A stretch of DNA of 64,000 bases from an uncultured Actinomycetota bacterium. GTDB lineage: Bacteria; Actinomycetota; Actinomycetes; Mycobacteriales; Micromonosporaceae. The DNA is taken from NCBI GenBank assembly GCA_963803115.1, contig CAWDLN010000003.1, positions 372,304 through 436,303 of the forward strand, in the 5' to 3' direction. Positions 10,072 to 41,700 of this stretch are shown here, piece by piece; within the stretch, counting starts at the first letter, position 1; each line of letters opens with the position of its first letter. A model generated the notes under the pieces. It was not told the DNA's origin. It searched no databases and was given only the letters and a program-made list of their open reading frames with translations. The position numbers were made by a program, and so were the translations under genes.

Positions 10072-11352
10072 TCATTCCACCGACGTCCAATCGGAACGAC
10101 CTCGGCCGTGCCGACGAATGGGGCCGTGCCGACGAATGGGGTGGTGCGCGGGGTCGGTTTCGGGCTGCGGGGATCGTGGCGGCGGAGCGTGCGGCATGGG
10201 CTCTGGCCCGGAATCGTCCAGCAACCGGCCGGCCTCGCCGGTGCGGGCGACGCTGTGCCAGCGCAGGCGGATGCCGGTCAATGCCGTGACGGTCGACTGT
10301 ACGGTCACGAGATACATCAGCTGCCGGTACACGACGAGCTGGAAGGGCAAGCTCCACAGTGGTGTGAGCCGTTCCCGGTCGAGGCGCAGGGCGTACCCGG
10401 CCGCTACCAGTTGTACCGCGGTGTAGCTCAGCCAGACCGCCAGAACCTGCGGTACGGGCAGGAACACCAAGCCGTACACGGCATAGACGTCGACGGCCGG
10501 AGCGCTCAGCGGCAACAGGATCTGGAACAGCACGAGGTACACCAGGCCCCGACGGCCGAGCTTGCCCGCCGCCCCGCGCTCGCGGAGCGACGCGCGGTGC
10601 TTCCAGATCGCCTGCATGGTGCCGTAGCACCACCGGTACCGCTGCCGCCACAGCTGGCGCAGGGTCGACGGCGCTTCGGTCCACGCGATCGCCGTCTCCT
10701 CGTAGACGACCCGCCAGCCGGCGCGCAGGACGGCCATCGTGAGGTCCGTGTCCTCGGCCAGAGTGGTCGCAGGCACGCCGCCGGTCGCGTCGAGGACCTG
10801 GCGGCGGAACGCCCCGATCGCACCCGGCACGGTCGGCATGCACTCGCCGAGGTCGTAGAGACGACGGTCGAGGTTGAATCCCACCACGTACTCGAGGTGT
10901 TGCCAGCGGCCGAGCAGGCCCTTGCGGTTGGCGACCTTCGTGTTGCCGCTGACGGCACCCACATCCGCGTCGGCGAAGGGTTGCACGAGGCGCCCTAGGG
11001 CATCACGCTCGAAGACCGTGTCGCCGTCCACGAGCACGATGAGATCGCCCATCGCCCGGGCAATGCCGGCATTGAGCGCGGCCGGTTTGCCGGCATTGGC
11101 CTGTCGTACAACCCGGACACCCCGCAGGCCCAGCGACCGCACGATATCCGCCGTGCCGTCGGTTGACCCATCATCGACGACGATCACTTCCACCGACGGG
11201 TAGTCGCTCGCGATCAGCGATCGGACCGTGGCGGCGATATTCGCCGCCTCGTTGTATGCGGGCACGACCACCGAGACGGACCCGAGGTATCGCAGGCGGC
11301 TGTGCTCTCGGCTGACGCCGGGCGCGTCGCGCGTGGATCCTCGCGGCCACAA
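10072..11352 (-). CDS. processive family-2 glycosyltransferase (PgaC/IcaA/NodC-like)
   Basis: VVVPAYNEA...VDDGSTDGT...LVDGDT...QRYRWCYG (QxxRW) and C-terminal TM helices; contains an 18-bp tandem duplication (10104-10139) that gives HHPIRRHGPIRRHG. Confidence 0.75.
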   Translation of the reverse strand: MWPRGSTRDAPGVSREHSRLRYLGSVSVVVPAYNEAANIAATVRSLIASDYPSVEVIVVDDGSTDGTADIVRSLGLRGVRVVRQANAGKPAALNAGIARAMGDLIVLVDGDTVFERDALGRLVQPFADADVGAVSGNTKVANRKGLLGRWQHLEYVVGFNLDRRLYDLGECMPTVPGAIGAFRRQVLDATGGVPATTLAEDTDLTMAVLRAGWRVVYEETAIAWTEAPSTLRQLWRQRYRWCYGTMQAIWKHRASLRERGAAGKLGRRGLVYLVLFQILLPLSAPAVDVYAVYGLVFLPVPQVLAVWLSYTAVQLVAAGYALRLDRERLTPLWSLPFQLVVYRQLMYLVTVQSTVTALTGIRLRWHSVARTGEAGRLLDDSGPEPMPHAPPPRSPQPETDPAHHPIRRHGPIRRHGRGRSDWTSVE

Positions 11353-12331
11353 CCTGAATCCCGAGCCGGAGCAGGCCCAGGCCCAACGCGACGAACAGGA
11401 TCAACTCCAGCGCGCTGGACAACCAATTCGCCAGGCGCTGAGCGACGCGAAGGGCATCGCCACGCAGATTGCTGGCGGCGTTGGCGTCCGCGTTGCTCGG
11501 GGGCAGCTGCAGCGCCTCCGAGACCGTTGTGAAGTGGTATCCCTGCTGGCCGAGCTGGGTCAGCAGGGCATCGACGGCAGCAACTGTCTGCGACCGGTCG
11601 CCGCCGCCGTCGTGGAGCATGATTACCGCGCCCTCGCCCGGCGCCGGCGCGGCCGCGGCGACGATGGCGGGCACGCCTGGATTGGCCCAGTCTTTGGTGT
11701 CGCGGTCGGCCAGGACGGTGAGATACCGGCCAGCGGCGACGCTCTTCAATGCGTCGAACTCCTCGGCGCTCATCGCGTCGGGTTCGGACGAGAAGGGCGG
11801 CCGCAGGAGCACACTGTTGACCCCGGCGGCCCCGGCGATCGCGTTCTGGCTGAGGGTCAGCTCGAGATTACGACGCCACTGCGGGATCGTGATGAGCTCG
11901 GCGTGGGTGAACGTGTGCGCCCCGACCTCGTGGCCCTCGGCGACCATGCGACGAACCAGATCCGGGTGATCGTTGACTTCCGAGCCGATGACAAAGAAGG
12001 TGGCGTGCGCGCCGTGTCGAGCAAGCACATCGAGGATCTTCGGTGTCCAGTTCGGGTCCGGTCCGTCGTCAAACGTCAGGGCGATCGAATCGGCGGGCAG
12101 GCGGCGGCTGGACACCTCGCCGTTGCTGTCAATGCGAAGCACGGGTCCACCCGCGAGCACGTTGTCCGGCGCCGCCGCGCGTCCTTCCGCGGGTATCCGC
12201 GGTCCGTCCCCCTCATGACCGACGTGGTGCACATAGCCGGAAAGGCACAACTCGCCGAGCAGAAGTACCAGCCCAAGAACGAGCAGCACCCAGTGCGCGC
12301 GTGGCTCGCGCCGGTTGGTGTGGATGGCCAT
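11171..12331 (-). CDS. polysaccharide deacetylase (NodB/CE4 domain) with N-terminal TM anchor
   Basis: HWVLLVLGLVLLLGELCLSGYV (TM) ... ALTFDDGPDPNWTPKILDVLARHGAHATFFVIG ... a C-terminal TM, then an Arg-rich tail overlapping the GT2 start by 182 nt in another frame. Confidence 0.75.
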   Translation of the reverse strand: MAIHTNRREPRAHWVLLVLGLVLLLGELCLSGYVHHVGHEGDGPRIPAEGRAAAPDNVLAGGPVLRIDSNGEVSSRRLPADSIALTFDDGPDPNWTPKILDVLARHGAHATFFVIGSEVNDHPDLVRRMVAEGHEVGAHTFTHAELITIPQWRRNLELTLSQNAIAGAAGVNSVLLRPPFSSEPDAMSAEEFDALKSVAAGRYLTVLADRDTKDWANPGVPAIVAAAAPAPGEGAVIMLHDGGGDRSQTVAAVDALLTQLGQQGYHFTTVSEALQLPPSNADANAASNLRGDALRVAQRLANWLSSALELILFVALGLGLLRLGIQVVAARIHARRARRQPRAQPPAIPRVRLGGRARIQRGGEYRRHGPIADRERLPVGGSDRRR

Positions 12332-12801: not shown

Positions 12802-12989
12802 GTCACCTCGCTCAGCGATCCCTCTCCCGTAGGTGTCACACGCCTCGGATTGGGCGCGATCCATCATGCACGAATCCGTAGCGACAACCTACTGCCTGCC
12901 GGTCGCCATATGACGCAGCCGCTCCCGGGGTCAAACCATCGACGAAGATCAACGGTACGGGCTGGTGCAGCCGATCCGGCCATCATCAG

Positions 12990-13140: not shown

Positions 13141-13223
13141 GAACACCAAGTGCATCCGTGCGTGTGCTGGCGCTTCCAGCCGGCCTGCGGGACGGGCGCA
13201 CGTGTCCGCGGAGGGGTAGGCGC

Positions 13224-14240
13224 ATGGGCGTCGAGACCTGGGTCTGGGTCGTCACACTGGTTGCTACGGTCGGCTTGCTTTTCGCCGACCTGTTCGTGAT
13301 CGGTCGGCGGCCGCACGAGCCGTCGTTGCGAGAGTCAACCCTCTGGGTGACCTTCTACGTCGCCCTCGCGCTGCTCTTCGGCGTCGGCCTGTGGTTCGTC
13401 GCAGGGCCCACGTACGCGGGACAGTTCTACGCGGGCTGGCTTACCGAGTACAGCCTGTCCGTGGACAATCTCTTCGTCTTTGTGATCATCATGTCGCGGT
13501 TCGCGGTACCGCGGCAGTTCCAGCAGAAGACATTGCTGATCGGCATCGTGCTCGCCCTCATCATGCGCGGCATCTTCATCGCGGCCGGCGCGGCTTTGAT
13601 CAGCCAGTTCATCTGGGTCTTCTACATCTTCGGCCTGTTCCTGCTTCTTACCGCCATCCGCCTGGTGACCCATCGGGGGACCGAAGATCCGAGCGAGTTC
13701 AAGGAGAACCTGCTCATCCGGGTGTCCCGCCGGGTGCTGCGGACGTCGAAGGAGTACGACTCCAAGGCCCACTTCTTCACCCACTTCCCTGACGGCCGGC
13801 GGATGCTGAGCCCCCTGATCATTGTGATCATCGCGATCGGTACCACCGACCTGATCTTCGCCCTCGACTCGATCCCGGCGATCTTTGGTTTGACCAAGGA
13901 GCCGTACATCGTCTTCACCGCGAACGTGTTCGCGCTGATGGGGCTGCGGCAGCTCTACTTCCTGCTCGGGGGTCTGCTCGACCGGCTGAAGTTCCTGTCG
14001 TACGGGCTTGCGATCGTCCTCGCCTTCATCGGCGTCAAGTTGGTGATGGAGGCCCTGCACGCGAACAACGTGCCGTTCATCAATGATGGTGAGCCGCTCA
14101 CCGCGGTGCCGGAGATCTCGACCGCGACGTCGCTGGTCGTGATCGCCGCGACGCTCGTCATCACGACCGTGGCGAGCCTGGTCAGCTCCCGGCGCGACCG
14201 GCAACGCGCCGAGGCGAGCACACCAGCCGTCGAGCCGTGA
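13224..14240 (+). CDS. TerC family integral membrane protein
   Basis: MGVETWVWVVTLVATVGLLFADLFVIGRRPHEP...EYSLSVDNLFVF...TDLIFALDSIPAIFG; GGGGTAGG RBS. Confidence 0.85.
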   Translation: MGVETWVWVVTLVATVGLLFADLFVIGRRPHEPSLRESTLWVTFYVALALLFGVGLWFVAGPTYAGQFYAGWLTEYSLSVDNLFVFVIIMSRFAVPRQFQQKTLLIGIVLALIMRGIFIAAGAALISQFIWVFYIFGLFLLLTAIRLVTHRGTEDPSEFKENLLIRVSRRVLRTSKEYDSKAHFFTHFPDGRRMLSPLIIVIIAIGTTDLIFALDSIPAIFGLTKEPYIVFTANVFALMGLRQLYFLLGGLLDRLKFLSYGLAIVLAFIGVKLVMEALHANNVPFINDGEPLTAVPEISTATSLVVIAATLVITTVASLVSSRRDRQRAEASTPAVEP

Positions 14241-15918: not shown

Positions 15919-16740
15919 TTGAGGGAGGCGGACGTGTCGCTTGGCCTGGAGAGGGCAACCAACGCGCGCGACCTCGGTGGCTATCGCACCCAGGATGGCC
16001 GAATCGTACGGTCTGGCCTGGTTTTTCGGTCCAATGCGCTTAACCACCTCTCGGACGCCGACGTCGTCGCGGTCGGCAATCTCGGCCTGGCTTGCGTGAT
16101 CGATTTCCGCCACCAGCGGGAGATCGACCTGATCGGCGCCGACCGTCTGCCCTCGCCCGCGCCCAAAGTCGTCTCGCTGCCGCTGTTCGATCCCGACCAC
16201 GACGTGTTCACGGCGGTCAGCGCGGTGCTGCGGGGTCAGGCCGGTGCCGACGCGATCGAGCACCTGCGCGCCGACGCCGCCTCGGGGGGCGCCGCGGTGA
16301 TGATGATCGATCTGTACCGGCGTTTCGTCAACGCGCCGGAGTCGCGGGCCATCTTCGCCGCCGCCATGCAACTCCTGACCACGCCGGAGGCGCTGCCGCT
16401 GCTGTTCCACTGCACGGCTGGCAAGGACCGAACGGGATGGCTGGCCGCGACATTGCTCTCCGCGTTGGGCGCCGACCGAGACACGATCATGGCCGATTAC
16501 CTGCGCACTTCGGAGCTCAACGCCGGCGGGCGCGACCGGACCCTGACCGCGATGGCGACCCGGGTGGCCCAACCCGAGATCATTCTTCCGCTGCTCGAAG
16601 TGAGAACCGAGTACCTCGAGGCGGCCCTGCTCGAGGCGGACTCCCGCTACGGCGGCATGGACGGCTACGTCACCAATGGCCTCGGTCTGACCGAGGCGCA
16701 GCTAGACCGCCTGCGCACCCGACTCCTCACCGACGAGTGA
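15919..16740 (+). CDS. protein-tyrosine/phosphoinositide phosphatase (PtpB-like, Y_phosphatase3)
   Basis: LLFHCTAGKDRTGWLAATLL (CX5R P-loop, like mycobacterial PtpB CFAGKDRTG). Confidence 0.75.
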   Translation: MREADVSLGLERATNARDLGGYRTQDGRIVRSGLVFRSNALNHLSDADVVAVGNLGLACVIDFRHQREIDLIGADRLPSPAPKVVSLPLFDPDHDVFTAVSAVLRGQAGADAIEHLRADAASGGAAVMMIDLYRRFVNAPESRAIFAAAMQLLTTPEALPLLFHCTAGKDRTGWLAATLLSALGADRDTIMADYLRTSELNAGGRDRTLTAMATRVAQPEIILPLLEVRTEYLEAALLEADSRYGGMDGYVTNGLGLTEAQLDRLRTRLLTDE

Positions 16741-17196
16741 GGACCTCCGGGTCCAACCATTGACGATGAGCACCTGGCCGACGACGTAGGAAACCGCGAC
16801 GAGCACCGCTGATGCCGGCAGGTCAGCGGCACCGCTCAGTCGTACCGCGAGCAGAACATCGAAGAGCAACAACGCGACCACGCCGAGCCCGACCCACCTC
16901 GCCCGCGCGAACGCGACCGTGTAGCACGCGTGGCAGACGACGAGGAACGCGATGCCGAGCATCGGCACGGACGGGAATGTGAGGTCGAACACGGTGGCCG
17001 AACCGAGTCCCACGAGCAGCCAGACGTCGGGCCGGCGGCGCGCCTCGGACGCCGCGAAGATCACGACGCCGGCGAGCAACGGCATGAGCAACGGAGCGGT
17101 GGCCCAGGCCAGGCTGGCCGGTCCGCGCGCGGTGGCCATCGCGTAGGCGGTGGCGATGAAGGCGTACAGGATCACGATCACGCGCGATGTCGGCAT
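16702..17196 (-). CDS. hypothetical integral membrane protein
   Basis: Four or five hydrophobic helices (VIVILYAFIATAYAMA..., LLMPLLAGVVIFAA..., AFLVVCHACYTVAF...); 3' end overlaps ptpB-like convergently by 39 nt. Confidence 0.45.
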   Translation of the reverse strand: MPTSRVIVILYAFIATAYAMATARGPASLAWATAPLLMPLLAGVVIFAASEARRRPDVWLLVGLGSATVFDLTFPSVPMLGIAFLVVCHACYTVAFARARWVGLGVVALLLFDVLLAVRLSGAADLPASAVLVAVSYVVGQVLIVNGWTRRSSLVGEESGAQAV

Positions 17197-17232
17197 CGGT
17201 GCTACCTCGGGGGGGTGGGGGAGCGTCCGAGG

Positions 17233-18666: not shown

Positions 18667-18694
18667 CACGGCCGGCCTGGCAGACTGACTCGAC

Positions 18695-19651
18695 GTGGCG
18701 CCCGAATCAGGCGACGAGCTGACGTGGATCGTGCTGGTGCGCGACCTCTCCGACGTGGCCGCCGTCAGCGGCCAGGAGAGGACGTTTGTATCGTTGGTCC
18801 TCGATGCCGACACCGGCCTCGCTCGAGGTGTCGCACTGGGACAGACCGTCAGCGAAGCGAGAACGGCGGCCATGACCTCGGCCGCGACGACGGCCGTTGC
18901 GCCATTCGCCGAGGCGGGACCCCCGAGTCGGGTCCTGTGCGCGCCGGGTGCCGGGGAGGACATGGCAACCGATGTCATCGCCGCCCTCGGCGGTGGCGCC
19001 CTGCCGCTCATCGCCGAGGTGCCGATGCCACCCGAGGCCGAGGACATCCTCGATGAGCTGGTGGGGCATCTGTCCGGCCGGAACCTGCCCGACGAGCTGC
19101 CCCAGGCCGAGGACTGGGAGGCGCTGGTCTCCCGAACCTTGGACTACGCCGAGACCGAGCCGTGGCAGGCGTGGCCCGACGACCTTCAGCTGCGGCTCGT
19201 CGTCAGTCTCGCCGATCAGTCCATGTCCTACGTGGCCGTCGTGATCGGTCGAGACGGACTGCAGGCTGGGCTGGTGCTCTATCCCGGGCGGGAACAGAAG
19301 GACGTCGTGGTACCGGGCGACGACTGGCAGCCCGAGGATCCGCTGCCGTTCCTGGACGGCTCGCTGCTGCTGCACCTCAACCCGCCCGACGACACGCTCG
19401 CGGACATGGCCGCCAAGGCGATCCGGTACGGCTGGCCCGAGGACGCCACCTGGATGCCGGTCTGGCTCACCGCGGGCCCGGATGGATTCGCCGACCTAGA
19501 TCGGACCCAGGCGATCCATCTGACCGTCGCACTGGCCGGCGTTCTCGCCCGCCATCGAAAATCCGGCGCCGCGAAGAAGTCCGCCAAGACGACCGGCACG
19601 CTGGCCCTGCCCGGCGGAGCGGGTCGGTTCACGATCACTGACCTACGGTGA
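18695..19651 (+). CDS. hypothetical acidic protein
   Basis: 318-aa ORF with GC3-rich codons; no recognisable motif; stop overlaps the purD start region. Confidence 0.5.
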   Translation: MAPESGDELTWIVLVRDLSDVAAVSGQERTFVSLVLDADTGLARGVALGQTVSEARTAAMTSAATTAVAPFAEAGPPSRVLCAPGAGEDMATDVIAALGGGALPLIAEVPMPPEAEDILDELVGHLSGRNLPDELPQAEDWEALVSRTLDYAETEPWQAWPDDLQLRLVVSLADQSMSYVAVVIGRDGLQAGLVLYPGREQKDVVVPGDDWQPEDPLPFLDGSLLLHLNPPDDTLADMAAKAIRYGWPEDATWMPVWLTAGPDGFADLDRTQAIHLTVALAGVLARHRKSGAAKKSAKTTGTLALPGGAGRFTITDLR

Positions 19652-22854: not shown

Positions 22855-22961
22855 TGTCCTGGCCGGTGCCGTTCGCCCGGCCGTGACCCCGGGCCGATGT
22901 GACCCCTGCCCTTGGGCGCGGGTGGGCCTGCCTGGGATGATTTCGTTCGGGAGGAACGACG

Positions 22962-24362
22962 GTGCTGGATGTGATCGCGTGGCTCGGCGAGGTGCCGCCG
23001 ATCCTGGTCTATGTCGTCGCCGCTGCCCTGGTCTTCACCGAGACCGGGTTGATCATCGGGCTGGTGCTGCCGGGTGAGGTGACGCTGATCTTCGTCGGTT
23101 TCCTCTGCTCGATCGGAACGATCGACCCCGTACCCGCCGCGGCGACCATGATCATCGCGGCGCTGGCGGGAGATTCGGTCGGATTCAATGAAGGCCGCCG
23201 GTACGGTCGCCGGCTCGAGGCCTCGCGGCTTGGCCAATGGGTCGGCGAACAACGGTGGGCCAAGGCGGACGCTCTGCTTGACCGTCACGGTGGTCGGGCC
23301 GTGTTTTTGGGGCGGTACGTCGCATTTGCCAGGACGCTCATGCCGCGACTGAGCGCGATGGCCGGCATGACCTACCGGCGCTTCGTCCGCTGGGACATCC
23401 TGGGCGTGACCACGCAGGTGATCGCCTCGATCGCCATTGGCTACCTGGCCGGCGGCTCCTACCGTCTCGCGGCGGAGCTGCTTGGCCGGGCCACCGGCGC
23501 ATTTCTCTTGCTCCTGTTGGTGCTCCTCGCGCTTGTCCTGTTTGGACGGTACCTCGGCCGGCACCCGGACCCGGTCACCTCGTTCGGCGACCGGATCGGC
23601 CAATGGGTTCCGCTGCGCCTGCTGGATCGGGCGTACGACTCGGTCTTCCGCTGGCTCACTGCGCGCCTCGGTGTGAGCGGCGCGGTGTTCACCAGCATCG
23701 TTCTCGGTGTCGTCCTGCTCCTTGGTGCGGGCGTCGCACTGACGATCGTCATCGATCTCCTGGTTTCGCAGAGCGGCATTCCGTTGGTCGATCCGCTGGT
23801 CGCCGACTGGTTCGCGGCTCAGCGCTCGCCCGGTACGGTCGACGCCGCGACGACGATGCTCTCCCTGCTCCGGGGCTCCTACCTGGTGGTGGCGGCGGGA
23901 TTGGTCGGGCTCGTGCTCAACCGCCGTCCGGCCCGCTGGCGCTCCGATCTCCTGGGCGTGGTCGGCACGATCGGTGCCTTCGTCCCGCTCGTCATCCTCG
24001 CGATCGCCACGGACTTCGCCCGTCCCGGCCGCTCGGACGTGCCGGGCGAGCAGGCTCCGTTCGCCAACCAGATCACCCTGGCCACGGCGAGCGTGGGTCT
24101 CGTGGCCTGGCTGCTGACCCGTCAGCCGCTTGGCTGGGGCGGCCGCGTCGCGAGCTGGACCGCCGCCGTCGGCGTCGTGTTGGTGATCTGCGCGGCGCGG
24201 CTCTACCTGGGCTGGAACTGGCCTAGTGAGGTGGTGGCGTCGGTGCTGCTCGGCGCGGCGTGGGTGGTCGTCTTCGCGGTCGCGTGGCGTACCCGTGACC
24301 GGATCCGCGCCAGCGACCCGGAGGCCGAGAAAACCCTCGCCGGTGCTCCTCGAGTGCGGTGA
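22962..24362 (+). CDS. DedA/VTT-domain membrane protein fused to a degenerate PAP2-like C-terminal domain
   Basis: N-terminus [19 protein letters not shown]...[14 protein letters not shown] (DedA). C-terminus [22 protein letters not shown] resembles PAP2 motif 3 with His/Asp replaced. GTG start with GGGAGGAA RBS. Confidence 0.65.
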
Positions 24363-27218: not shown

Positions 27219-27230
27219 GCCCGGCTGGCT

Positions 27231-27560
27231 ATCCTTCCTGCTCCAGTTCCCAGAGTGCCGGGGTGTTCGGTGGCTCCCAGCCGGGCAATGACACGTGCGC
27301 TTGGCGGGCCCGGTACGTCAGGCCATTGTGGACAACACGGTCTCCGACCTCGTAGGCGACCTGCGGCTGCCAGGTCGGCGTTTCGCCGGAGGCCGTGCAC
27401 CTATCGGTGTCATCCAGTTTCTCGTTCCCGCAGGGTTGCCCGTGAACCGTCGCCCCAGGCTCTCCGTTGCCGGAACGGTGAGGCGATGGATGAAGTTCAT
27501 GGCACGCGCGTGAATGGTCAGGGTCATCTCTGTAGTCGTGCTGCTGTCGGTCGGGGTTGT
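27231..27560 (-). pseudogene. orphan CBM5/12 (chitin-binding type 3) domain remnant without start codon
   Basis: Minus frame ending at TAG (comp 27228-27230): TWQPQVAYEVGDRVVHNGLTYRARQAHVSLPGWEPPNTPALWELEQEG fits the ChtBD3 consensus W..Y..GD.V.hNG..Y.A....WEP....ALW. The frame opens right after a TAG and has no start codon or upstream catalytic domain. Confidence 0.4.
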
Positions 27561-28108
27561 CCTAGCTACTACGATCCCGGCCGATGCAAAGCTCATCGCT
27601 GACATCGATGCGGCGCGAAATACGCCCCGTTCCGCGTTTGGGATTCTCAACTGCGATGGGCCCGGATCGATCAGCGTGGTCACCGATGAGTCCCGTGGCA
27701 AGGTCTGGCGGTTCCACAAGCCTGCCGACTCCAGTCGTTGTGAGGCGCACGGATTCAAGGTGAACGGTTCCATGTTCGCGACCCGCAACAACGCGACGTA
27801 CTGCTCTGCGTGGTCGAGCCGGATGTCGACGGTCGTGGATACGAACGCGGTGTTCCACGACGCCGGCGCCGGCAACGTCGAGCTCCCGTCAGCCGACACC
27901 GACCAAGTCGCCGCGGCCGACCCCGTCCGACGCTGGCAACACCCAAGCAGGGGGCCCCGAAGCCGGCGACCCCGAAGCCGGCGAGGTCGTGACGGCCAAC
28001 AATGCCTCTCTATCCAAGGCCTTTATCGCCGCCGCCGTCCTGCTCTGTGCCATCCCGGTCGCGCTCGGATTCGTTTCGGCTCGGCGGCGAAGGGCGCGCA
28101 ACGATTGA
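27514..28108 (+). pseudogene. secreted protein (signal peptide) whose C-terminal membrane anchor lies in the +1 frame (apparent frameshift near 27890)
   Basis: Frame 1: MVRVISVVVLLSVGVVLATTIPADA...WRFHKPADSSRCEAHGFKVNGSMFATRNNATYCSAW..., then an Arg-rich junk tail. Frame +1: PTPTKSPRPTPS...ANNASLSKAFIAAAVLLCAIPVALGFVSARRRRARND-stop (TM plus basic tail). Contains a 15-bp x2 tandem repeat at 27955-27984. Confidence 0.4.
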
Positions 28109-28109
28109 C

Positions 28110-28810
28110 TTAGTCCTTAGTGGACGGTCGCAGCGCAGGGGATAGTCCGAGCACAGTGGATCGTTGGAGGCTCGGTCCCGTCACCAGCGCGAAGGCTAAC
28201 CCGGTCAGTGTGCCAACGACCACGAGGGGCCGAGCCGATGGAAAGTCCTCGGGGCGCAACCAATGCACAACCTCGACGAGACCAAGCCTCGCGACGATGA
28301 ATCCTGCCATCAGACCGAGGATCAAGCCACCCAGACTGAGCCATGGCCATGCGCCCGACCGGTCCATGAATCGTCGCAGGACGAGCCATTGGCAGGCGCC
28401 CGGCAGTAGGCCGACGAGCAGACCGACCGGCACGCCGATGAGCACCATGCGTGTCCATCCGATGTCGGGTCCAACGTCGGAGATCTTTCCGCCGATTGCT
28501 CCGGACAGGGCGCCGCCCGACCGGCCGACCAGAATCCAACCCAGCATCGTGGCGGGAATCCACCAGACCGACACCCGCAGTGCTCGGCGAAGAACCAACC
28601 ACCGTGCTGCTCCGATGAGCAGGCCAAAGATCGTCAGGCTGATGGCGGGTGTTCACGGCCTCGATCCGGGCGGCTCGCCCGGCCGACGTGGTGACGCCGA
28701 AGTATGGCTGCATCTGCTGCCGCTGGAGGGCGCCGACCACGGCTCCGGCGAGGGCGAAACCGCCAACGTTGGCGACCAGCCTGAGCCACCGGGTCTGGCG
28801 CGTCTCCATG
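28110..28810 (-). pseudogene. multi-TM membrane protein split over two frames (frameshift near 28640-28660)
   Basis: Frame A: METRQTRWLRLVANVGGFALAGAVVGAL...RIEAV. Frame B: ISLTIFGLLIGAARWLVLRRALRVSVWWIPATMLGWILVG... to the stop at 28110. Paralog of the intact gene at 61989-62603. Confidence 0.45.
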
Positions 28811-28822
28811 TGCACTCCAGGG

Positions 28823-31179
28823 TCACTCGGTGAGGCCAGCGCGGCGTAGTGCGTCGGCGAGGGCCGTGTTGGATCCGTCGGAGGTCGGCCCCCCGCGGCC
28901 GCGCCCCGGGGCAGGCGGTCGACCACCCCGATCGTCGCGTTGGTCTCGACCGTCCCGGGGCGATCGACCGGGGCGAGCCGAGGTTGCCTCGTCGTCGAGG
29001 CGCAGGGTGAGGGATATCCGCTTGCGGGGGATGTCGACGTCGAGCACCTTCACCCGTACGACGTCCCCTGGTTTGACCACATCGCGCGGATCCTTGACAT
29101 AGGTGTGGGACAGGGCCGAGACGTGCACCAGACCGTCCTGGTGGACGCCGACGTCGACGAATGCGCCAAACGCGGCGACATTTGTCACGACGCCCTCGAG
29201 CACCATCCCGGCACGGAGGTCGGCGAGCGTCTCGACGCCGTCGGCGAAGGTGGCCGTCTTGAACGCCGGCCGAGGATCGCGTCCGGGCTTCTCCAGTTCC
29301 CTGAGGATGTCCGTGACGGTCGGCAGGCCGAAGGTGTCGTCGACGAACTCGTCCGGCTTCAGTCCACGAAGGACGGACGAGTTGCCGATCAGCACCTTGA
29401 GGTCGGTGCCCGTCGTCCGAAGGATCCGCCGTACCACGGGGTAGGCCTCCGGGTGCACGCTCGAGGCGTCCAGGGGGTCGTCACCCCCGGGGATGCGCAG
29501 GAAGCCGGCGCACTGCTCGAACGCCTTCGGGCCCAGCCGCGGGACCGACTTCAGTGCCGTCCGTGTACGGAATGGTCCGTTTGCGTCGCGGTGCGCCACG
29601 ATGTTGCCGGCGAGGCCCTCGCCGATCCCGGAAACCCTTGTCAGCAAGGGCACCGACGCGGTGTTCACGTCGACGCCAACCGCGTTGACGCAGTCCTCGA
29701 CGACCGCGTCGAGGCTGCGGGAGAGTTTGATCTCGGCGAGATCGTGCTGGTACTGGCCGACGCCGATCGACTTCGGGTCGATCTTCACCAGCTCGGCCAA
29801 GCGGGTCCTGCAGTCGCCGTGCGATCGAGACCGCGCCCCGCAACGACACATCCAGCCCGGGCAGCTCGGCCGACGCATAGGCCGACGCCGAGTAGACCGA
29901 GGCGCCGGCCTCGGAAACGACGATCTTGGTCAGGCCGGACACCAACGAGATGAGATCGCCGGCCAGCTTGTCGGTCTCCCGGGATGCGGTGCCGTTGCCG
30001 ATCGCGACCAACTCGACCTGGTGCGCCTTGGCGAGCCGGGCGAGAGTAGCCAATGCACTCTTGCCAGCGCTGCTGCGGCACGTGGGGGTAGATGGTGTCG
30101 GTCGCGACGACCTTGCCGGTGGCATCGACGACGGCCACCTTCACGCCGGTCCGGAATCCGGGGTCGAGGCCCATGGTGGCGCGGGTTCCGGCGGGAGCGG
30201 CGAGGAGCAGGTCGCGCAGATTGGCCGCGAAGACCCGTACCGCTTCGTCCTCGGCCGCCTGGAACAGGCGCATCCGAACGTCGATGCCGAGATGCGCGAG
30301 GATCCGCGTCCGCCAGGCCCAGCGGACCGTGTCGCCGAGCCACTTGTCGGCCGCGCGTCCGCGGTCCGCGATGCCGAACCGTACCGCGATCTCTTGCTCG
30401 TACTAGTCGGCCCGTCCGATCGCCGGCGCCTGGTCCGGCTCCATCGACAGATCGAGGATCTCCTCCTTCTCGCCCCGGAACATCGCCAGGATCCGGTGCG
30501 AGGGCAGTTTGGTGAACGGTTCCGAGAACTCGAAGTAGTCGGCGAACTTGGCCCCCGCTTCCTGCTTGCCCGGCCGTACCGTTGCCGCCACCCGGCCCTT
30601 CGCCCACATCTTCTCGCGCAGCGAACCGATCAGGTCCGCGTCTTCGGCGAAGCGCTCGACGAGGATCGCCCGCGCACCCTCGAGCGCCGCCGCGGCGTCG
30701 GCCACACCCCGGTCAGCGTCGACATAGGCCAGTGCGGTCGCCAGGGGTCCAGCGTCGGATCGCCGAGCAGCGCGTCGGCGAGTGGTTCGAGGCCAGCCTC
30801 CCGGGCGATCTGCGCCTTCGTGCGGCGCTTGGGCTTGTACGGCAGGTAGATGTCTTCGAGACGCGCCTTGGAGTCGGCGGCCATGAGCTGGTCGAGCAGC
30901 GCGTCGTCGAGCTTGCCCTGCGAGCGGATCGACTCGATGATCGCGGCCCGGCGGTCCTCCATCTCCCGGAGGTAGCGCAATCGCTCCTCGAGCGTGCGAA
31001 GCTGGGCGTCATCCAGCGACCCCGTGACCTCCTTGCGGTAGCGCGCGATGAACGGCACCGTCGCCCCGCCGTCGAGCAATTCGACCGCGGCGGCCACCTG
31101 TCCGTCGCGAACGCCGAGCTCATCCGCGATCCGCTGGCTGATCTTGCGCGCGGTGTCCGCTGGGGTCGCGTTGCTCACT
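28823..31179 (-). pseudogene. tex: transcription accessory protein Tex, disrupted by three frameshifts and one in-frame amber codon
   Basis: Pieces in different frames align colinearly with E. coli Tex: Tex_[15 protein letters not shown]; YqgF MRLFQAAEDEAV...[20 protein letters not shown]; [15 protein letters not shown]; HhH/S1 [20 protein letters not shown]...[17 protein letters not shown]. Lesions at about 30744-30747, 30403-30405 (cta, i.e. TAG), 30064-30075 and 29797-29801. Confidence 0.8.
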
Positions 31180-31495
31180 GAACCGCCTCTTCGCTCGTCG
31201 GGACGTCGGCGTGTCATTGTGCCGTCGCCCGCTGGTTGTTGTCGCGCCGGCTCGCGGAGCTTGACGCAATCGGCAAGATTGGTACGCGGTAGCGACGGGA
31301 GGCGGCATGAGCGAGAACCGCAACGTGTATCTGGACCAGGTGATGGCCCAGCAGGAGCGGCTGGAACAGGACTTGCGCTCGAAGCGGTCGCGCGCCGGCG
31401 CCAGCGGTGGCTCCAGCGGCCGGGGGCGTTCCGGCTCAGCGCGGCCGGGGCGGCGGCCGCGACTCCGGCGGCGCGACCGGAGCCGGCACCGTCGG

Positions 31496-32695
31496 CGGTG
31501 GACGTACGGGTCAGCGGCTTCTGGCGCTGGAAGACGGTGCTCGTGCCGCCGAACGCGTTCGTGGTGCACACCCGCCGCGGCCGGAGCGAGCCGCTGCACG
31601 TCGGGCTCGGCACCTCGTTCCGGTTCGACCCGGCCCGCGACTCGTACCTGGTCGTACCCGGGCGCCATGCAGACGATCCTGATCAACGCCTACTGCATCT
31701 GCCAGGAGCTGCAGGGTCTGGTGGTTCAGGCGTACGTCCAGTGGATCATCCAGGACTTCCCCACCGCGTACCGCAAGCTCGACTTCGGCGACCCGGACGA
31801 CCCGATGCGCCTGGTGAACCTGCAGCTCAAGGAGCAGGCCGAGGCGGCCATCAAGGACAAGGTCGCCACGATGGGCGTGCACGAGGTGCTCAGCGACAAG
31901 CAGCCGATCGTGGAGGAGCTGACCGCCCGGCTGCGCGCGGTGGCCGAGGGTGAGGGCGGCAGCGACCGCGGCCTCGGTCTGCGCATCGTCACGGTGCAGA
32001 TCAAGGAGGCGATCGTCAGCTCGGCACGGCTATGGGAGAACCTGCAGAAGCCATTCCGCTCCGAGCAGGGCCGGATCGCCCGCCTCGCCGAACTGAGCGC
32101 GGAGGAGGCGATCACCGAACGCGAACTGTCCGCGGCCCGGGTGCAGGAGACCCAGCGGATGGAGACCGAGCGCGAACTGGCCGAGCTGCGGGCGCGCAAC
32201 GAGGCGGCCACGTTCGACCGGGAGGCGGGGGAGAAGGTCCGCCGAGCGCAGACGGAGCAGGAGTCCGCGCGCCAGTTGAGTGAGATGCAGAACGAGACCC
32301 TGCTGCATGAACTCGAGCTGGAGCGGGAGCGCAGCGAGCAGGAGCTCGAGGTCGGCCGGCTTCGGCTGGAGCGGGAGTACGCACTGCAGCGTCAGGGTCT
32401 GGATGGCGAGCTGGCCCTGGCCCAGGCGCGTGCCGACGCCGCCCACGCCAACGCCCTCCTAGCCCTGGAACGGGATCGTATCCGGGCTGCCATAGAGAAC
32501 GGGGCGTCACCGCAGGCAATCCAAGCGAAGATGATCGACTCGCTGCCGGAGATCGTCGCCAAGCTGCCCAAGCCGGCCGAACTCCGGGCGGTGACGATCG
32601 GCGGCGACTCGACCACCGTGGCGGGGCTCATCGCTGAGCTCGGAGCCGTGGTCGGCGCCCTACGCACGATCGCCCCACCCGGGGCGGATGCCTGA
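31496..32695 (+). pseudogene. SPFH/band-7 (flotillin/YqiK-like) protein with a frameshift near 31657-31662; N-terminus uncertain
   Basis: [51 protein letters not shown] in one frame, continuing as [25 protein letters not shown]...coiled-coil in the next. An extra G in cccggg is consistent with the shift. Upstream [12 protein letters not shown]... (31307) may belong to it. Confidence 0.55.
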
Positions 32696-32700
32696 CTCGA

Positions 32701-33500
32701 TTACGGTTTGCGGCCAACTCCGGCGAACTCGGAGCACGGCGTGGTGTCGTTGCCGTCGGGGCGCCATTGCGAGCAGGTGACGATACCCGGCTCCAATAGC
32801 TCCAGACCCTCGAAGAAGGCGGCGATCCCTTGTGGATTACGGGCCGTGATCGGAGCCGACCCGCTGGAGTTCCACATCTGCATCGCCCGGTCGACTGCTT
32901 CGGGGTTGACCTCCATCGTTGGATGGGAGATCGCGAGGTAACTGCCCGACGGTACGGCCGACACGAGTCGGCGGACGATCGTCTGCGCCTTCTCGTCGTC
33001 GACCACGAAGTTCAGGATGCCCAGGAGCATGACGGCGACCGGCTGGTTGAAGTTGAGCGTGAGCGAAGCGTCCTCGAGAATCCGGTCCGGATCGCGTAGA
33101 TCAGCGTCGATGTAGTCGGTTTTGCCCTGAGGTGTACTCGTCAACAGCGCCCGCGCATGTACCAGAACCATCGGGTCGTTGTCGACGTAGACGATGCGGC
33201 TGTCGGGCGCGGTCGCCTGGGCCACCTCATGGGTGTTGTTCGCGGTCGGTAGACCCGTGCCGATGTCGAGGAATTGTCGGACGCCGGCCTCGCCGGCGAG
33301 AAACCGTACCGCTCGACCCAGAAACCACGGTTGAACCGAGCGGACTGGACCAGCTCGGGCATGTACGTCAGGACCTGGTCGGCCGCTTCGCGGTCCACCG
33401 CGAAGTTGTCCTTGCCCCCCAGTAGGTAATTCCACAGTCGCGCCGAGTGGGCGACCGTGGTGTCCAGCTTGGACAGTTGTTCGGCAACAGGATCAGTCAT
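32701..33500 (-). pseudogene. DUF574-type SAM-dependent methyltransferase with a frameshift near 33322-33325
   Basis: N-terminus MTDPVAEQLSKLDTTVAHSARLWNYLLGGKDNFAVDREAADQ...ARFNRGF, then a frame change to LGRAVRFLAGEAGVRQFLDIGTGLPT...; a T/A homopolymer at the junction. Confidence 0.6.
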
Positions 33501-33599
33501 GTCAGGAGCCCCTCGGCGGGTCCGAAGTAGATCGTCGATGCGTAGCGTAGTGTGATCGGGCGGCCGGGGGAAAGGGGGCGGCTCGGCGAGCCGAGAAAC

Positions 33600-34487
33600 T
33601 CAGTGCGCCAGGTCCTTGAGAATCCCGGAAAGTGTCTCCGCGGTCCGCGACGGCGGATGGGCCTCCAGGCACAACCGCTCCATGGTCTCGGCGTACAAGT
33701 CGAGATCCTCGCGTTTGTCCAGGTAAAGCGCACTGGTGAGTTGCTCGACGTAGACCACGTCGGAAAGATCCCGTTCCGGAAAGCGCAGGATCGTGAATGC
33801 GCCACCGGCGGCCGCGTGCCCGCCGATGTCGAACGACACGATCTGTAGCCGCACATTCGGCCTGGTGGTGGCCTCAATGAGGGCTTCGATCTGCGCCCGA
33901 AGAATGTCCATTCCACCGATCGGCCGGCGCAGTGCCGCCTCGTCGATGACGGCCCACAAGTGCGATGGCCCGGGTCGGGTGAGCACATTCTGCCGGGCCA
34001 GGCGCAGGTCGACCCGGCGCTCGACCTCGGCGTCGGGGGCTCGCTGGTGTCCGAGTCGGACCACGGCTCGGGCGTAGTCCCGGGTCTGCAGCAGCCCGGG
34101 TACGAACTGGACCTCGTAGGTCCGGATGAGCGACGCCGCCGCCTCCAAGCCCAGGTACGACAGGAACCAGGACGGCAGCACGTCGCCGTACCGGTGCCAC
34201 CATCCGGTCTTGTTCGCCTCACGGGCCAGTGCCAGCATGCGGCCGCGCTCTGGGTCATCCGTGGCCATGCCGTACAGGGTGAGCAGGTCACCGATGTCGC
34301 GTTCCTTGAAGCTGACCCGACCCAACTCGATCCGGCTGATCTTCGATTCCGACGAGCGGATGGCGTATCCGGCCTCTTCGCGGGTCACTCCTTGGGCTTC
34401 GCGCATGCGCCTCAGGTGGGCACCGAGCAGCATCCGCAGCACGGTCGGCCCGCCAGCCGACCCGCTCTCGATCGCAGGCGTCAACAC
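33600..34487 (-). CDS. XRE-family HTH regulator with DUF5753 C-terminal domain (WhiJ/Scr1-like)
   Basis: LGAHLRRMREAQGVTREEAGYAIRSSESKISRIELGRVSFKERDIGDLLTLYG... Confidence 0.8.
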   Translation of the reverse strand: MLTPAIESGSAGGPTVLRMLLGAHLRRMREAQGVTREEAGYAIRSSESKISRIELGRVSFKERDIGDLLTLYGMATDDPERGRMLALAREANKTGWWHRYGDVLPSWFLSYLGLEAAASLIRTYEVQFVPGLLQTRDYARAVVRLGHQRAPDAEVERRVDLRLARQNVLTRPGPSHLWAVIDEAALRRPIGGMDILRAQIEALIEATTRPNVRLQIVSFDIGGHAAAGGAFTILRFPERDLSDVVYVEQLTSALYLDKREDLDLYAETMERLCLEAHPPSRTAETLSGILKDLAH

Positions 34488-34668
34488 CGCCTACCTCCGC
34501 GTTGTATAGCCCCCCGGCTTCGAACGTGCTCTCTGCCGGTAAGCATGCCATGACCTCCGGTGATATGCACCGGTCGACATGCCGACGTTCGGTTGGCGGA
34601 ATGACCTAACGGGTGCGCACTCGATCGTGTATAGGGCCGGGCGAATCCTCCAATGGCGGTAGCTCGGG

Positions 34669-36207: not shown

Positions 36208-37027
36208 TTGGGGTATCGGCGTAGGTTTGGGCTGGTGCGGCGCCGGTCGTACCGGGACTCGGATCTGGCCGAACTGCAGCGGGTCGTCGCGGGCTGGATC
36301 GCGCAGGCCGGCCCGCGTGGCTACGACCACATAGGAGAATTGCCGCACCGCATCTACGAGAATCTCCGCGGACGCCGGCCCGTCGGGGACCTGGTTCACC
36401 TGTGGCACGAAGAGTCCACTGTGGTCGGCCTAGCGATCTGCGGCCGCTTCGGTAGCTCGTTCGACCTGGTGGTTGCCCCGCATCTGCGCGGTTCCGACGC
36501 CGAGCGGGCGTTGCTCGCTGATGCGGCCGCGACAACCGAACGGGTTCGTGACGCCGGTGAGGAATTCGTCGGTACGGACGTGTTCGCTAGCGATACGCTC
36601 CGACAGCAGGCGCTCACGGAGCTCGGGTTTGCAAAGTTCCGGGTCTGGGACCACGTTCGCGAGCGCGACCTCGCCGGGCCGGTGGACCCCGTGCAACCGC
36701 CGGGCTTCCAGATCCGAGAGGCCACAATAATCCGAGAGGCCACAATGGACGATGCCGACCAGCTCGCGGCGGTCCGCAACGGTGCCTTTGGCGAGAACTG
36801 GACCGGCACGTCGCTTCGGGCTCAGGTGATGACGAAGCCCGGCTACGACCCCGCGCACGAAATCGTGGCGGGCCGTCATTTCGCATTCCCTGGTGAGAAT
36901 GCGGGCGGCCGGAATGTCGAGTGTGACGCTCAACCACAACGCGGAAAACGTGGCCGCCCGTCGACTGTACGAGTCGCTCGGCTTCGTCAAGACCGATGTC
37001 ATATACGGCTTCCGCCGGCCGTGTTAA
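36208..37027 (+). pseudogene. GNAT family N-acetyltransferase with a frameshift near 36880-36920
   Basis: Main frame reads to ...GYDPAHEIVA, then junk. The conserved C-terminal GNAT motif MSSVTLNHNAENVAARRLYESLGFVKTDVIYGFRRP-stop is in the +1 frame ending at 37027. In-frame 18-bp tandem duplication at 36712-36747 (REATIIREAT). Confidence 0.5.
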
Positions 37028-37031
37028 GACT

Positions 37032-37451
37032 TCATTGTCCGCGAGCCGAAATCTGTTGGACGGCCCAGCTGTTCCCATCGGGGTCGTCGAAGAACACGAA
37101 GCCGACGTTGTCGAGCGGGCTGGGCGTCGGTGCGGGATTCTCGCCCATGACGACGACGTCGCTCACTTTCACGCCGTTGTCGAGCAGCTGCGTTCGCGCC
37201 TTGTTGATGTCGGCCACCACGAGCTGCACGCCCTTCAGCGATCCGGGCTCCATGTTGTAACCGGTTCCTCCGATTCCTTTGCCGATCACGATCGAGCAGC
37301 CGGAGCCCGGCGGGGTCAGCTGCACAACCCGTACGTCGTCGCCGATCACGGTGTCGTGATCGACCACGAAACCGAGCTGCCGCTCGTAGAAGGCCTTGCT
37401 CCGGTCCACATCGGAGACAGGTACGACGACAACCTCCAGGGTCCAGTTCAT
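37032..37451 (-). CDS. VOC/glyoxalase family protein
   Basis: MNWTLEVVVVPVSDVDRSKAFYERQLGFVVDHD... Confidence 0.8.
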   Translation of the reverse strand: MNWTLEVVVVPVSDVDRSKAFYERQLGFVVDHDTVIGDDVRVVQLTPPGSGCSIVIGKGIGGTGYNMEPGSLKGVQLVVADINKARTQLLDNGVKVSDVVVMGENPAPTPSPLDNVGFVFFDDPDGNSWAVQQISARGQ

Positions 37452-40140: not shown

Positions 40141-41700
40141 TTGCCACGGTTGCGCACGTGTGTCATATCGCTGCTCGGAGTGCTGCTGATTACCGGCTGC
40201 ACGTCTAGTCCAGAGGCGCCTGTCGATACGACCCCGCCCGATCGGGCGCAGTCGCGAACAGCTCTCCCCGACGGTGACACCACGGTCGTGGACGGCGTCG
40301 GTGCAGTGGGGCTCGCGTTGGCCACAAGTCGGGCCATCTTTCAGAGTGCGCCGGCCGTCGTGTTGATCGCGGAGGGCGAGAACGCCGACTTCGAGCGGGC
40401 CGGTAAGGCGGCCGTGGATCTCGGCGTACCGCTGCTTGTCGCGCCCGCCGTGGCCAGCCCGAGCGGATCGGCGGAGCCGAGCGCGACGCTGGCACCCGCG
40501 GGCGGCCAGGAGCCGGACGCGGACCTGCGTACCGAGCTGACCAGGCTTGCCCCCCGAACGGTGGTGGCGGTCGGTGCCGCGGCCACGGCCTGGGCTCAGC
40601 GCGCCTCCCTGACCGTGACCACACTGCCCGACTCGGTGGATGACCCGGTGCTTCCGGACGTACGGCCGCCGGCACCGCTGGAGTCGTTGTTGGTCCTCGC
40701 GCGGGGCGACGGCAGCGACGCGGCGGCGATCGTTACGGCGCGGGCCAGCGGTGCCCAGGTTCTGACTCTCAGCGAGCCGGATCCGCGCGCGTCCAGCGAA
40801 TCCGTCAAGGCGGTGGCCGCGGCGCCGATCGCTCACGTACTCGCGATCGGTGGCGCATTCGGGCCGGCCGACCTACTTCGCCGCCGGCTCGCAGGCCGCG
40901 ACCGGCGTCGAGCTGCCCGGCGGCGGCCAGGTGATCTTCCCCGGCCGGCGCATGGTCGCGCTGTACGGGCACCCGGGTGACACAGTGCTCGGAGCACTTG
41001 GTGAGCAGCGCTCGACGCCGCGATCGCCCGGGCGAAGAAGGTGGCGGCGCGTAGGCGCGCTCGTGGGCGAGCCGGTGGTACCGACATTCGAGATCATCGC
41101 CACCGTGGCCGCGGCGTCGCCGGCTCGGACGGCAACTACTCCAACGAGACGCCGGAGTCCGAGCTCGCCCCTGGATCGACGCGGCCAAGGCCGGGATCTA
41201 CGTGGTGCTCGACCTGCAACCCGGCCGGTCCGATTTCCTCACCCAGGCGAAGCTCTACGCCGACCTGCTGCTCACCGCATGTCGGGCTCGCGCTGGACCC
41301 GGAGTGGCACATGAAGCCAGACGCAGGTGCCGATGGTGCATCGGCTCGGTCAGCGCCGACGAGATCAACCAGACCGGCCAGTGGTTGGCCAGTTCACCGG
41401 GAGCACAACTTGCCGCAGAAGGTCCTCATGCTGCACCAGTTCCGCTCGCGATGATCTCGAACCGAGCGTCGCTCGTCACCGAGCTACGACGAGCTGCAGG
41501 TGGTCATCCATGCCGACGGGTTCGGCTCACCCGGCGCGAAGATCGAACACCTGGAATGGACTTCACATCGATGCGCCGCCGAACATCCATTGGGGCTGGA
41601 AGAACTTCTACGACGAGGACAAGCCCACATTCACGCCGACGCAGACGATGGCGGTCGAACCCACGCCGGTCTTCGTGTCCTACCAGTAGCTCCCGTCACG
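40141..41700 (+). pseudogene. lipoprotein (lipobox LLITGC) with cell-wall-binding-like repeats and a C-terminal putative hydrolase domain; reading frame switches about 11 times between 40865 and 41560
   Basis: Intact frame 40141-40865. After that, GC3-rich protein-like segments alternate frames: TYFAAGSQAATGVELPGGGQVIFPG / AALDAAIARAKKVAA / VGALVGEPVVPTFEIIATVAAAS / GSDGNYSNETPESELAP / IYVVLDLQPGRSDFLTQAKLYADLLL / PHVGLALDPEWHMKPDA / GSVSADEINQTGQWLA / NLPQKVLMLHQF / SYDELQVVIHADGFGSPGAKIEH / NGLHIDAPPNIHWGWKNFYDEDKPTFTPTQTMAVEPTPVFVSYQ-stop. Confidence 0.55.

Follow-up and report, generated by a model that had tools for sequence, protein, structure and literature searches.

Four consecutive genes at 28.6-33.4 kb of the window analysed here (the whole 64,000-nt stretch of DNA) need frame changes to be read as proteins: those encoding a membrane protein, Tex, an SPFH/Band7 protein and a Methyltransf_19 (DUF574) methyltransferase. 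Taken at face value, the window would point to the onset of genome decay in a soil actinomycete, uncultured and related to Micromonosporaceae. The question raised by this locus is whether its genes are really decaying or were broken in the assembly. An earlier note on this DNA had kept two explanations, indel-prone sequencing and relaxed selection leading to genome decay. Our analysis favours the former, although not through the homopolymers then invoked, and leaves to the latter only some remnants at the left edge of the region. With a probability of about 0.8, what looks like a set of decaying genes is mainly a cluster of single-base indel errors that entered the consensus when a metagenome was assembled from long reads. 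Real and very recent pseudogenisation, either as early genome decay or as relaxed selection on a dispensable block, is the rival that survives best, and we consider it unlikely.

The tex gene (28826..31178, minus strand) has its Pfam matches to the Tex_N, central, YqgF, HHH and S1 domains on separate ORFs, and its reading is spread over frames -3/-2/-3/-1 according to tblastn. Nucleotide alignments to the contigs L081 and L167 of two relatives located five 1-nt indels, at positions 29799 (+1), 30058 (+1), 30405 (-1), 30421 (+1) and 30748 (-1), some of them in a length-variable loop (residues 247-264). The frameshifts reported earlier for this gene were thus confirmed, but their number rises from three to five, and the amber codon listed with them is not a substitution: the -1/+1 indel pair itself creates the TAG at 30403-30405, and the corrected segment around it reads GPTEYE, the same as in L081 and L167. 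An apparent insertion bias among the indels was dropped, since the +1/+2 labels given by the aligner are unreliable for telling insertions from deletions.

The conservation of the frame-corrected Tex protein was evaluated over 371 near-invariant columns, defined by a conservation of 97% or more among 77 other orthologs from actinobacteria; a scan of genome contigs with the tex C-terminal fragment, whose listed matches included distant, non-syntenic actinobacteria, fed this test. Only one of the 371 columns deviated in the protein from the window, compared with a median of 1 (range 0-12) in the 77 other orthologs. Bacterial mutation-accumulation studies give 3-10 substitutions per indel, and under a neutral model with this ratio the five tex indels would be accompanied by 5-17 deviations (P ≤ 0.04 to 7e-7). 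Tex shows no relaxed constraint, its conserved residues being kept despite five indels, and this combination of several indels per gene with retained residues argues against pseudogenisation.

The three remaining genes of the block gave a similar picture. In the SPFH/Band7 gene (31307..32695, plus strand), tblastn, nucleotide and frameshift-aware alignments placed three frame-changing events at 31391, ~31473 and 31656, some of these indels being located in the low-complexity N-terminus. Their sum is a multiple of 3 and they cancel out, therefore the ORF stays open, with ~90 codons (~31391-31656) out of frame; residues 68-122 of the ortholog match in frame +1 with 92.7% identity, and the remainder is found in frame +2. 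The methyltransferase gene (32704..33500, minus strand) lacks one base at ~33325-33326, and positions 4-56 and 55-268 of the Methyltransf_19 profile are found on two ORFs, a split at ~33325 that is also backed by tblastn and nucleotide alignments. The membrane-protein gene (28113..28811, minus strand), which is absent from L167, belongs to a family of ~230 aa with 228 homologues at E ≤ 1e-3. Homologue residues 60-231 match the 180-aa in-frame piece, and frameshift-aware alignment to the homologues P0241, P0242 and P0245 regained the N-terminal 55 residues with a single +1 at 28647, corresponding to one extra base at about this position. The disruption of each of these genes had been proposed in the earlier note, whose junction coordinates proved accurate to ~10 nt in ortholog alignments.

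All 10 lesions found between 28647 and 33326 are 1-nt indels, as determined by alignment to orthologs (82.8% nucleotide identity for L081 and 88.3% for L167), and no true nonsense substitutions were found in the broken genes in the nucleotide alignments. These genes have lost nothing in GC3 or coding signal, and their codon-position GC signal is fully preserved. Both the lack of nonsense substitutions and the intact coding signal stand against pseudogenisation.

A second and denser patch of indels lies outside the flagged block, in a lipoprotein gene (40141..41688, plus strand) that was followed by three-frame reading and by frameshift-aware and nucleotide alignments. The number of indels, of 1-2 nt each, ranged from 12 at the protein level to ~17 at the nucleotide level against L167, all of them within 654 nt (40892-41545). 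The first 750 nt of the gene are indel-free, and all the indels fall in its 3' 42%, a clustering with P=6e-4. The ortholog is a single intact ORF of 513-518 aa in L085, L086 and L167, and the lipoprotein is also intact in a JGI contig that encodes a ligase with 97% identity to that of the window. The lesions noted earlier in the lipoprotein at 40.9-41.6 kb are therefore well founded, 12-17 indels having been found against intact orthologs of 517-518 aa. Twelve indels accumulated neutrally would mean 5-18% extra nucleotide divergence, and the damaged part of the gene is still 80-82% identical to intact orthologs; 12-17 indels confined to one part of a gene that keeps this identity are hardly what pseudogenisation would leave.

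Further lesions were present elsewhere in the window. A two-domain GNAT-like remnant (36208..37050, plus strand) shows in its translations the frame change, at ~36870, that had been proposed for a GNAT gene at 36.9 kb. It appears to be short of ~45 residues of the GNAT core, its C-terminal piece matching positions 76-116 of the Acetyltransf_1 profile directly after 'HEIVA' (a weak match, E=0.004), and it is absent from L084 and L085, where a synteny gap is found. The overlap between a polysaccharide-deacetylase ORF and a GT2 ORF (11171..11400, minus strand), defined by Pfam and translations, contains a frame switch at 11335/11336 without a gap in coding potential, and probably represents one frameshift (~11.34 kb) in a fused gene. 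A YhhN fragment was observed as a further remnant in the neighbourhood. The same-strand frame switches at 37.0-38.5, 45.3 and 47.3 kb were discarded as lesions, being ordinary gene boundaries instead.

The left edge of the region (27.2-28.1 kb) differs from the frameshifted block in the type of damage: structural remnants, with truncations and internal deletions, are present only here and at 36.2-37.05 kb. An orphan C-terminal CBM5/12 domain (27229..27398, minus strand; Pfam CBM_5_12, E=1.4e-17) occupies the position at which L083, the closest relative, encodes an LPMO_10 domain (E=2e-57) followed by two CBM_5_12 domains, and nucleotide homology with L083 (82.6%) ends at 27398. On this comparison the fragment reads as a real truncation remnant of an LPMO_10 gene with two CBM5/12 domains; it had rightly been called an orphan, whereas the frame change also ascribed to it is not needed. 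The adjacent secreted-protein gene (27514..28107, plus strand), for which no Pfam family was found, has a signal peptide and, in six-frame reading, a C-terminal TM anchor in another frame, and a frame change is plausible at about 27.87-27.9 kb. Two segments, 27476-27855 and 27987-28099, have a counterpart in L167, where ~100 nt more separate them; the L167 version of the gene is itself spread over three frames. The gene is thus probably truly degraded, having suffered deletions in its interior. Both remnants lie between the S15 peptidase gene and tex, in an island whose gene content differs in L081, L082, L083, L167 and the window. They are ordinary and isolated within this variable island, and constitute no evidence of genome-wide decay. 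The presence of genuine remnants nearby, that is, the reduced LPMO gene, the secreted-protein gene, the GNAT remnant and the YhhN fragment, is nevertheless a point in favour of pseudogenisation.

A second such point is that the housekeeping genes of the window are intact. As stated in the earlier note, rpsA, uvrB, purD, typA, the ligase gene, rsgA and uvrA are free of lesions: purD, typA and the ligase gene are single-frame and full length in comparison with orthologs, and rpsA, uvrB, rsgA and uvrA each occupy one long ORF in which the Pfam domains are complete. All the essential genes in the window are clean, as decay predicts, but with 3-4 independent patches this result is not significant. 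Between 17.2 and 45.7 kb, 19 of the 24 ortholog-checked genes were clean, including those for a beta-lactamase-like protein, MOSC, EAL, S15 peptidase, SLT, GNAT, glyoxalase, AHSA1 and PNPOx proteins. Most of these 19 genes are not obviously essential, and that many such neighbours are untouched speaks against pseudogenisation. The four affected genes of the block are adjacent and lie on both strands (P=0.009 for such adjacency, within a test of lesion distribution confined to the 64 kb), and the patches are independent of gene borders and of gene function. The bias toward dispensable genes that the earlier note had read in this distribution is thus replaced by spatial clustering. Paired events called by the frameshift-aware aligner in L088, L092, L103, L121 and L135 and at the ends of the EAL, VTT, PAP2 and DUF397 genes were rejected as false positives after a tblastn check; such false pairs arise in low-complexity or terminal regions.

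The sequence context of the lesions gave no support to homopolymers as their cause. At 19 indels there was no homopolymer enrichment, the longest run within ±7 nt being mostly 2-3 nt, against a background of random 15-nt windows in which the longest run is 2 in 57% and 3 in 34% of cases. The association of most junctions with short homopolymers, previously put forward, is therefore no more than chance. The lack of enrichment argues for consensus error from low coverage or mixed reads over systematic homopolymer error.

Comparison with orthologous loci, which had been suggested as a check, showed uninterrupted ORFs at the window's sites in the relatives. None of the indels of the window was found in L081, L084, L085 or L167, and relatives have indels of their own at other positions; lesion positions differ between relatives, and therefore the lesions are not inherited, a further argument against pseudogenisation. 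Four sister long contigs carry indels: in tex (three) and Band7 (two) in L085, in the C-terminal half of the lipoprotein gene (four) in L084, in the VTT, SLT and DUF5925 genes in L082, and in the tex C-terminus and an HTH gene (two) in L167, a JGI contig of unknown platform that is thus itself error-bearing. The proteins of these contigs are otherwise 88-95% identical. No indels were seen in the closest relatives on short JGI contigs (L083, L086 and a 5.6-kb contig). Single frameshifts in tex or Band7 are also present on the short metagenome contigs L102, L112 and L151 (platform unknown); these, like the lesions of L167, count against the artefact reading. One G at the tex loop is the sole difference between L100 and L102 over 240 nt. 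Concerning still closer sequences, the Band7 scan of metagenome contigs found no contig of the same species (best 83-86% amino acid identity), a DNA pattern with degenerate codons, spanning the variable loop of tex and the "amber", had no match in metagenome contigs, and the best relative with DNA is 88% identical to the window, with no same-species sequence among those searched.

The occurrence of frameshifts in tex and Band7 of several relatives can be taken as favouring pseudogenisation. The same genes are affected in the window and in its sisters (tex and Band7 in L085, the lipoprotein C-terminal half in L084), with a joint chance of ~0.015, a rough estimate from patch and locus lengths. 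Because of this repeated damage, the artefact reading needs an extra assumption, for example a difficulty intrinsic to the sequence or to the population.

On balance, the evidence favours indel error over decay because the lesions are of 1 nt, conserved residues are kept, the patches ignore gene boundaries, and the positions differ in relatives. We infer, for the window and the ENA 'contig_N' assemblies, an origin in long-read sequencing, judging by the size and names of the contigs, and also that low coverage or mixed reads gave rise to the indel patches. Under this model, few or mixed reads probably went into the consensus at 28.6-33.4 kb, at 40.9-41.55 kb and perhaps at ~11.3 kb, as could happen close to strain-variable islands or at places where the reads of co-occurring relatives collapse. 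The outcome would be scattered 1-nt indels breaking whichever genes lie in the patch. That indel errors fragment genes in long-read assemblies is a problem described in PMC12007338.

A strain mosaic, in which the consensus merges related strains that truly differ by small length polymorphisms and the frameshifts are junctions between real haplotypes, seems somewhat less likely again than pseudogenisation. The block adjoins the island of variable gene content, and indels in length-variable segments (the tex 247-264 loop and the Band7 low-complexity N-terminus), as well as the single G that separates L100 from L102 at the tex loop, would fit such junctions. Most indels nevertheless affect conserved parts of the genes, and haplotypes that are in frame are not expected to show a 1-nt length difference there. 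Even if correct, a mosaic would still be an assembly artefact as regards gene integrity, and is thus a sub-mechanism of consensus error more than a biological rival.

It is very unlikely that a real local mutational process producing only indels, or recurrent and very recent inactivation, has independently affected the same genes in related lineages. If true, it would explain why frameshifts occur at different positions in the window, L085, L084, L102 and L112, and would concern tex, the SPFH gene and the lipoprotein C-terminal half in related soil actinomycetes. Finally, restoration of the proteins by programmed ribosomal frameshifting or transcriptional slippage, which could appeal to the open Band7 ORF with its three shifts and to the well-conserved peptides in corrected frames, can be dismissed. 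The indel sites share neither a common nor a slippery motif, the orthologs have a single frame there, and this lack of positional conservation effectively refutes it. No known case of recoding comes close to five shifts in one gene, as in tex, or to the 12 or more of the lipoprotein gene.

Read as consensus error, the locus has its main value as a caution, since at face value false pseudogenes (tex, SPFH, methyltransferase and lipoprotein) would enter annotation and pangenome statistics. It also provides criteria by which indel patches in a consensus can be told from true pseudogenes without the need of reads: the type of lesion, the state of invariant residues after frame correction, the relation of patches to gene boundaries, and the positions of lesions in sister assemblies. 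The remaining biology is minor, and consists of the variable island between the S15 peptidase gene and tex, with an LPMO gene reduced to a single CBM5/12 domain.

Among known systems, three are relevant for comparison. The window resembles assemblies and MAGs made from long reads (Nanopore or PacBio) and affected by indel errors: conserved genes are cut by 1-base indels into neighbouring ORFs although their orthologs elsewhere are whole, and the damage comes in clusters, whatever the function of the gene. It differs from them in that its indels are not concentrated in homopolymers, the classic Nanopore signature, and in their uneven density, from ~2/kb in the block to ~20/kb in the lipoprotein patch. 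Gene remnants in strain-variable islands are matched by the LPMO gene reduced to CBM5/12 and by the secreted-protein gene, with a gene content that differs in each relative examined, but this model fits only the 27.2-28.1 kb segment and not the frameshifted genes. Decay of the Mycobacterium leprae type is characterised by pseudogenes with multiple lesions and runs of genes needing several frame corrections, with housekeeping genes intact, and runs of this kind beside intact housekeeping genes are also seen in the window. Unlike that decay, the window shows neither excess amino acid change at conserved sites nor stop-codon substitutions, its lesions fall in spatial patches that cut through a gene, and most of the genes that are not obviously essential remain intact, with codon-position GC preserved.

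The genes of a block at 28.6-33.4 kb, which the earlier note had placed within a run of at least five disrupted genes, were indeed found to be frame-disrupted, essentially where that note had located the breaks. Pfam domains of Tex fell on four separate minus-strand ORFs, and two ORFs shared the Methyltransf_19 (DUF574) profile. A syntenic relative, ENA ERZ25039591 contig_8635 (960 kb; its parts are denoted L081 and L084), was reached via the S15 peptidase, and its tex (807 aa), Band7 (470 aa) and Methyltransf_19 (266 aa) genes are all intact and in the same order as in the window. Mapping of the L081 proteins onto the window distributed Tex over frames -3/-2/-3/-1, Band7 over +1/+2 and the methyltransferase over -3/-2, and recovered each gene at 17.2-27.2 kb as a single full-length segment. 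In addition, frameshift-aware alignment of the membrane-protein candidate (228 homologues, ~230 aa) required exactly one +1, at 28647.

Comparison with L081 and with L167, the best relative represented by DNA (a 105-kb JGI contig, 88.3% identity over 28823-34586), revealed that all lesions in the block are one-base indels: 28647 (+1) in the membrane-protein gene; 29799 (+1), 30058 (+1), 30405 (-1), 30421 (+1) and 30748 (-1) in tex; 31391 (+1), ~31473 (net +1) and 31656 (+1) in Band7; and 33326 (-1) in the methyltransferase gene. The in-frame TAG of tex at 30403-30405, previously listed as an amber lesion, is not a nonsense substitution but a by-product of the -1/+1 pair, whose reversal gives ...DGPTEYE (GPTEYE in L081, GPSEYE in L167). 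The Band7 ORF at 31307-32695 is uninterrupted because its three shifts cancel. Short homopolymers at the junctions had also been proposed as a signature of sequencing error; the longest runs within 7 nt of the indels are mostly of 2-3 nt, equal to those at random positions, and a homopolymer signature is therefore absent.

The G+C content of the window is 65-72%, with a strong third-codon-position GC signal. The best named relatives of the S15 peptidase adjoining the block belong to Micromonosporaceae (~57-60% identity), and closer matches (86%, 77% and 75%) came from metagenomes only. The source is most likely a long contig from a long-read MAG of an uncultured actinomycete, a platform that we infer. 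Searches of metagenome contigs found no second assembly of the same species.

To assess constraint, the frame-corrected Tex of the window was aligned with L081 Tex and 76 full-length orthologs from other actinobacteria. It showed one deviation (I to L) among 371 columns conserved at ≥97%, the intact orthologs having a median of 1 (range 0-12). In bacterial mutation-accumulation work, 3-10 substitutions occur per indel. At this ratio, five neutral indels in tex would be accompanied by 5-17 deviations (P from 0.04 to 7e-7). Real recent pseudogenisation is poorly supported and quite improbable. On its side could be set the sparing of essential genes (~20% of the window), which is not significant with three or four independent patches. 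The bias toward dispensable genes claimed by the earlier note did not hold, since 19 of the 24 ortholog-checkable genes at 17.2-45.7 kb carry no lesion and many of these are not obviously essential (beta-lactamase-like, MOSC, EAL, VTT, PAP2, SLT, S15 peptidase, GNAT, glyoxalase, AHSA1, ArsR, a methyltransferase and PNPOx). The four affected genes of the block are adjacent and lie on both strands (P=0.009 for such adjacency); the pattern of lesions is spatial, not functional.

The lipoprotein gene at 40141-41688 (lipobox LLITGCTSS) contains the window's densest patch of errors, with 12 frame changes by protein-level alignment and ~17 small indels by nucleotide alignment. All of them lie within 40892-41545, the first 750 nt of the gene being indel-free (P=6e-4 that 12 random points cover so small a part). 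The damaged part retains 80-82% identity to intact orthologs, with much of the mismatch at the junctions; had 12 indels accumulated neutrally, nucleotide divergence would be higher by 5-18%. In L167, in two further contigs of relatives (L085 and L086) and in a JGI contig carrying a ligase with 97% identity to the window's, the gene is a single intact ORF of 513-518 aa. A dozen frameshifts in half a gene with the peptide kept are what a poorly supported consensus produces, and a pseudogene does not.

Other long contigs of the clade carry similar damage at other positions. In L085 (ERZ25039504 contig_15158, region 1-3347), tex is broken at residues 259, 423 and 505 and Band7 twice, the remaining checked genes being clean; in L084, the lipoprotein gene is broken four times (12490-13164); in L082 (ERZ25039581 contig_8185), VTT, SLT and DUF5925 are affected (5205-7673 and 12963-14056); and in L167, the tex C-terminus and, twice, an HTH gene (~972 and 5493-6348). 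The corrected proteins of these four contigs are 88-95% identical to intact ones. Short JGI contigs of the closest relatives (L083, L086 and a 5.6-kb contig) were free of breaks of this kind. On other metagenome contigs, a true frameshift was present in 3 of 51 segments of tex or Band7 (L102, L112 and L151); over 240 nt, L100 and L102 differ by only a single G, in the tex loop. L112, a short contig of a different species (81-82% nucleotide identity), has at 1456-1458 (window 31656-31684) a 20-21-nt deletion that shifts the Band7 frame exactly at GTACCCGGGC, the site of the window's +1. Tex and Band7 are affected in both the window and L085, and the C-terminal half of the lipoprotein in both the window and L084, an overlap somewhat above chance (joint chance ~0.015, a rough estimate from patch and locus lengths). 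Possible causes of this repeated damage are mixed-strain pile-ups beside variable islands, or the collapse of loci that co-occurring relatives have in common with the source.

At the left edge of the block, Pfam upheld the CBM5/12 fragment. In L083, the closest relative here (82.6% nucleotide identity), the gene after the S15 peptidase encodes LPMO_10 and two CBM5/12 domains; window homology stops at 27398, leaving the last CBM5/12 alone (79% amino acid identity), a truncation that is structural and does not stem from faulty base calling. The secreted-protein gene at 27514-28107 aligns only piecewise to L167, ~100 nt of which are absent, and the L167 copy is likewise spread over three frames; the decay of this gene is probably genuine. 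Each relative examined has a different set of genes from the S15 peptidase gene to tex: DUF5925-AAA, a beta-helix protein and two hypothetical genes in L081; an acetyltransferase and a group II intron RT in L082; the LPMO in L083; and the secreted-protein gene, without the membrane-protein gene, in L167. This segment is a variable island; at 27219-28822 its third-position GC is lower (~0.72 vs 0.85).

Observations were also made on other ORFs of the window. A second, two-domain GNAT-like ORF (36208-37050), missing from L084 and L085 and represented in L167 by a 96-aa GNAT piece, shows a frame change at ~36870, an apparent deletion of ~45 GNAT core residues and a 5-codon tandem duplication (IREAT-IIREAT) near 36712-36740. 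Polysaccharide-deacetylase and GT2 ORFs overlap by 230 nt (11171-11400), and coding potential changes frame at 11335/11336 without a gap, which looks like one frameshift within a fused gene. A YhhN-family ORF (16702-17232) covers only profile positions 2-82 of 182 and has no counterpart in the L081 interval flanked by the Y_phosphatase3 and beta-lactamase-like genes; it may be what is left of a truncated gene. VTT and PAP2 domains form a single uninterrupted 473-codon ORF (22941-24362), the L081 genes (199 and 268 aa) being separated by 13 nt; either this is a natural fusion, or a stop codon was lost through an indel near 23500-23530. The EAL-domain protein (18689-19651) has only ~320 aa, corresponding to residues 434-752 of the 753-aa L081 ortholog, and the N-terminal 430 residues, the sensor or GGDEF part, are missing.

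What is real in the window is ordinary, namely the LPMO remnant, the degraded secreted-protein gene and the GNAT remnant. Altogether, the data indicate, with a probability of about 0.8, that consensus indel errors in a long-read metagenome assembly account for the patches of lesions at 28.6-33.4 kb and 40.9-41.55 kb; the fragmentation of genes by such errors is a known, described problem (PMC12007338).
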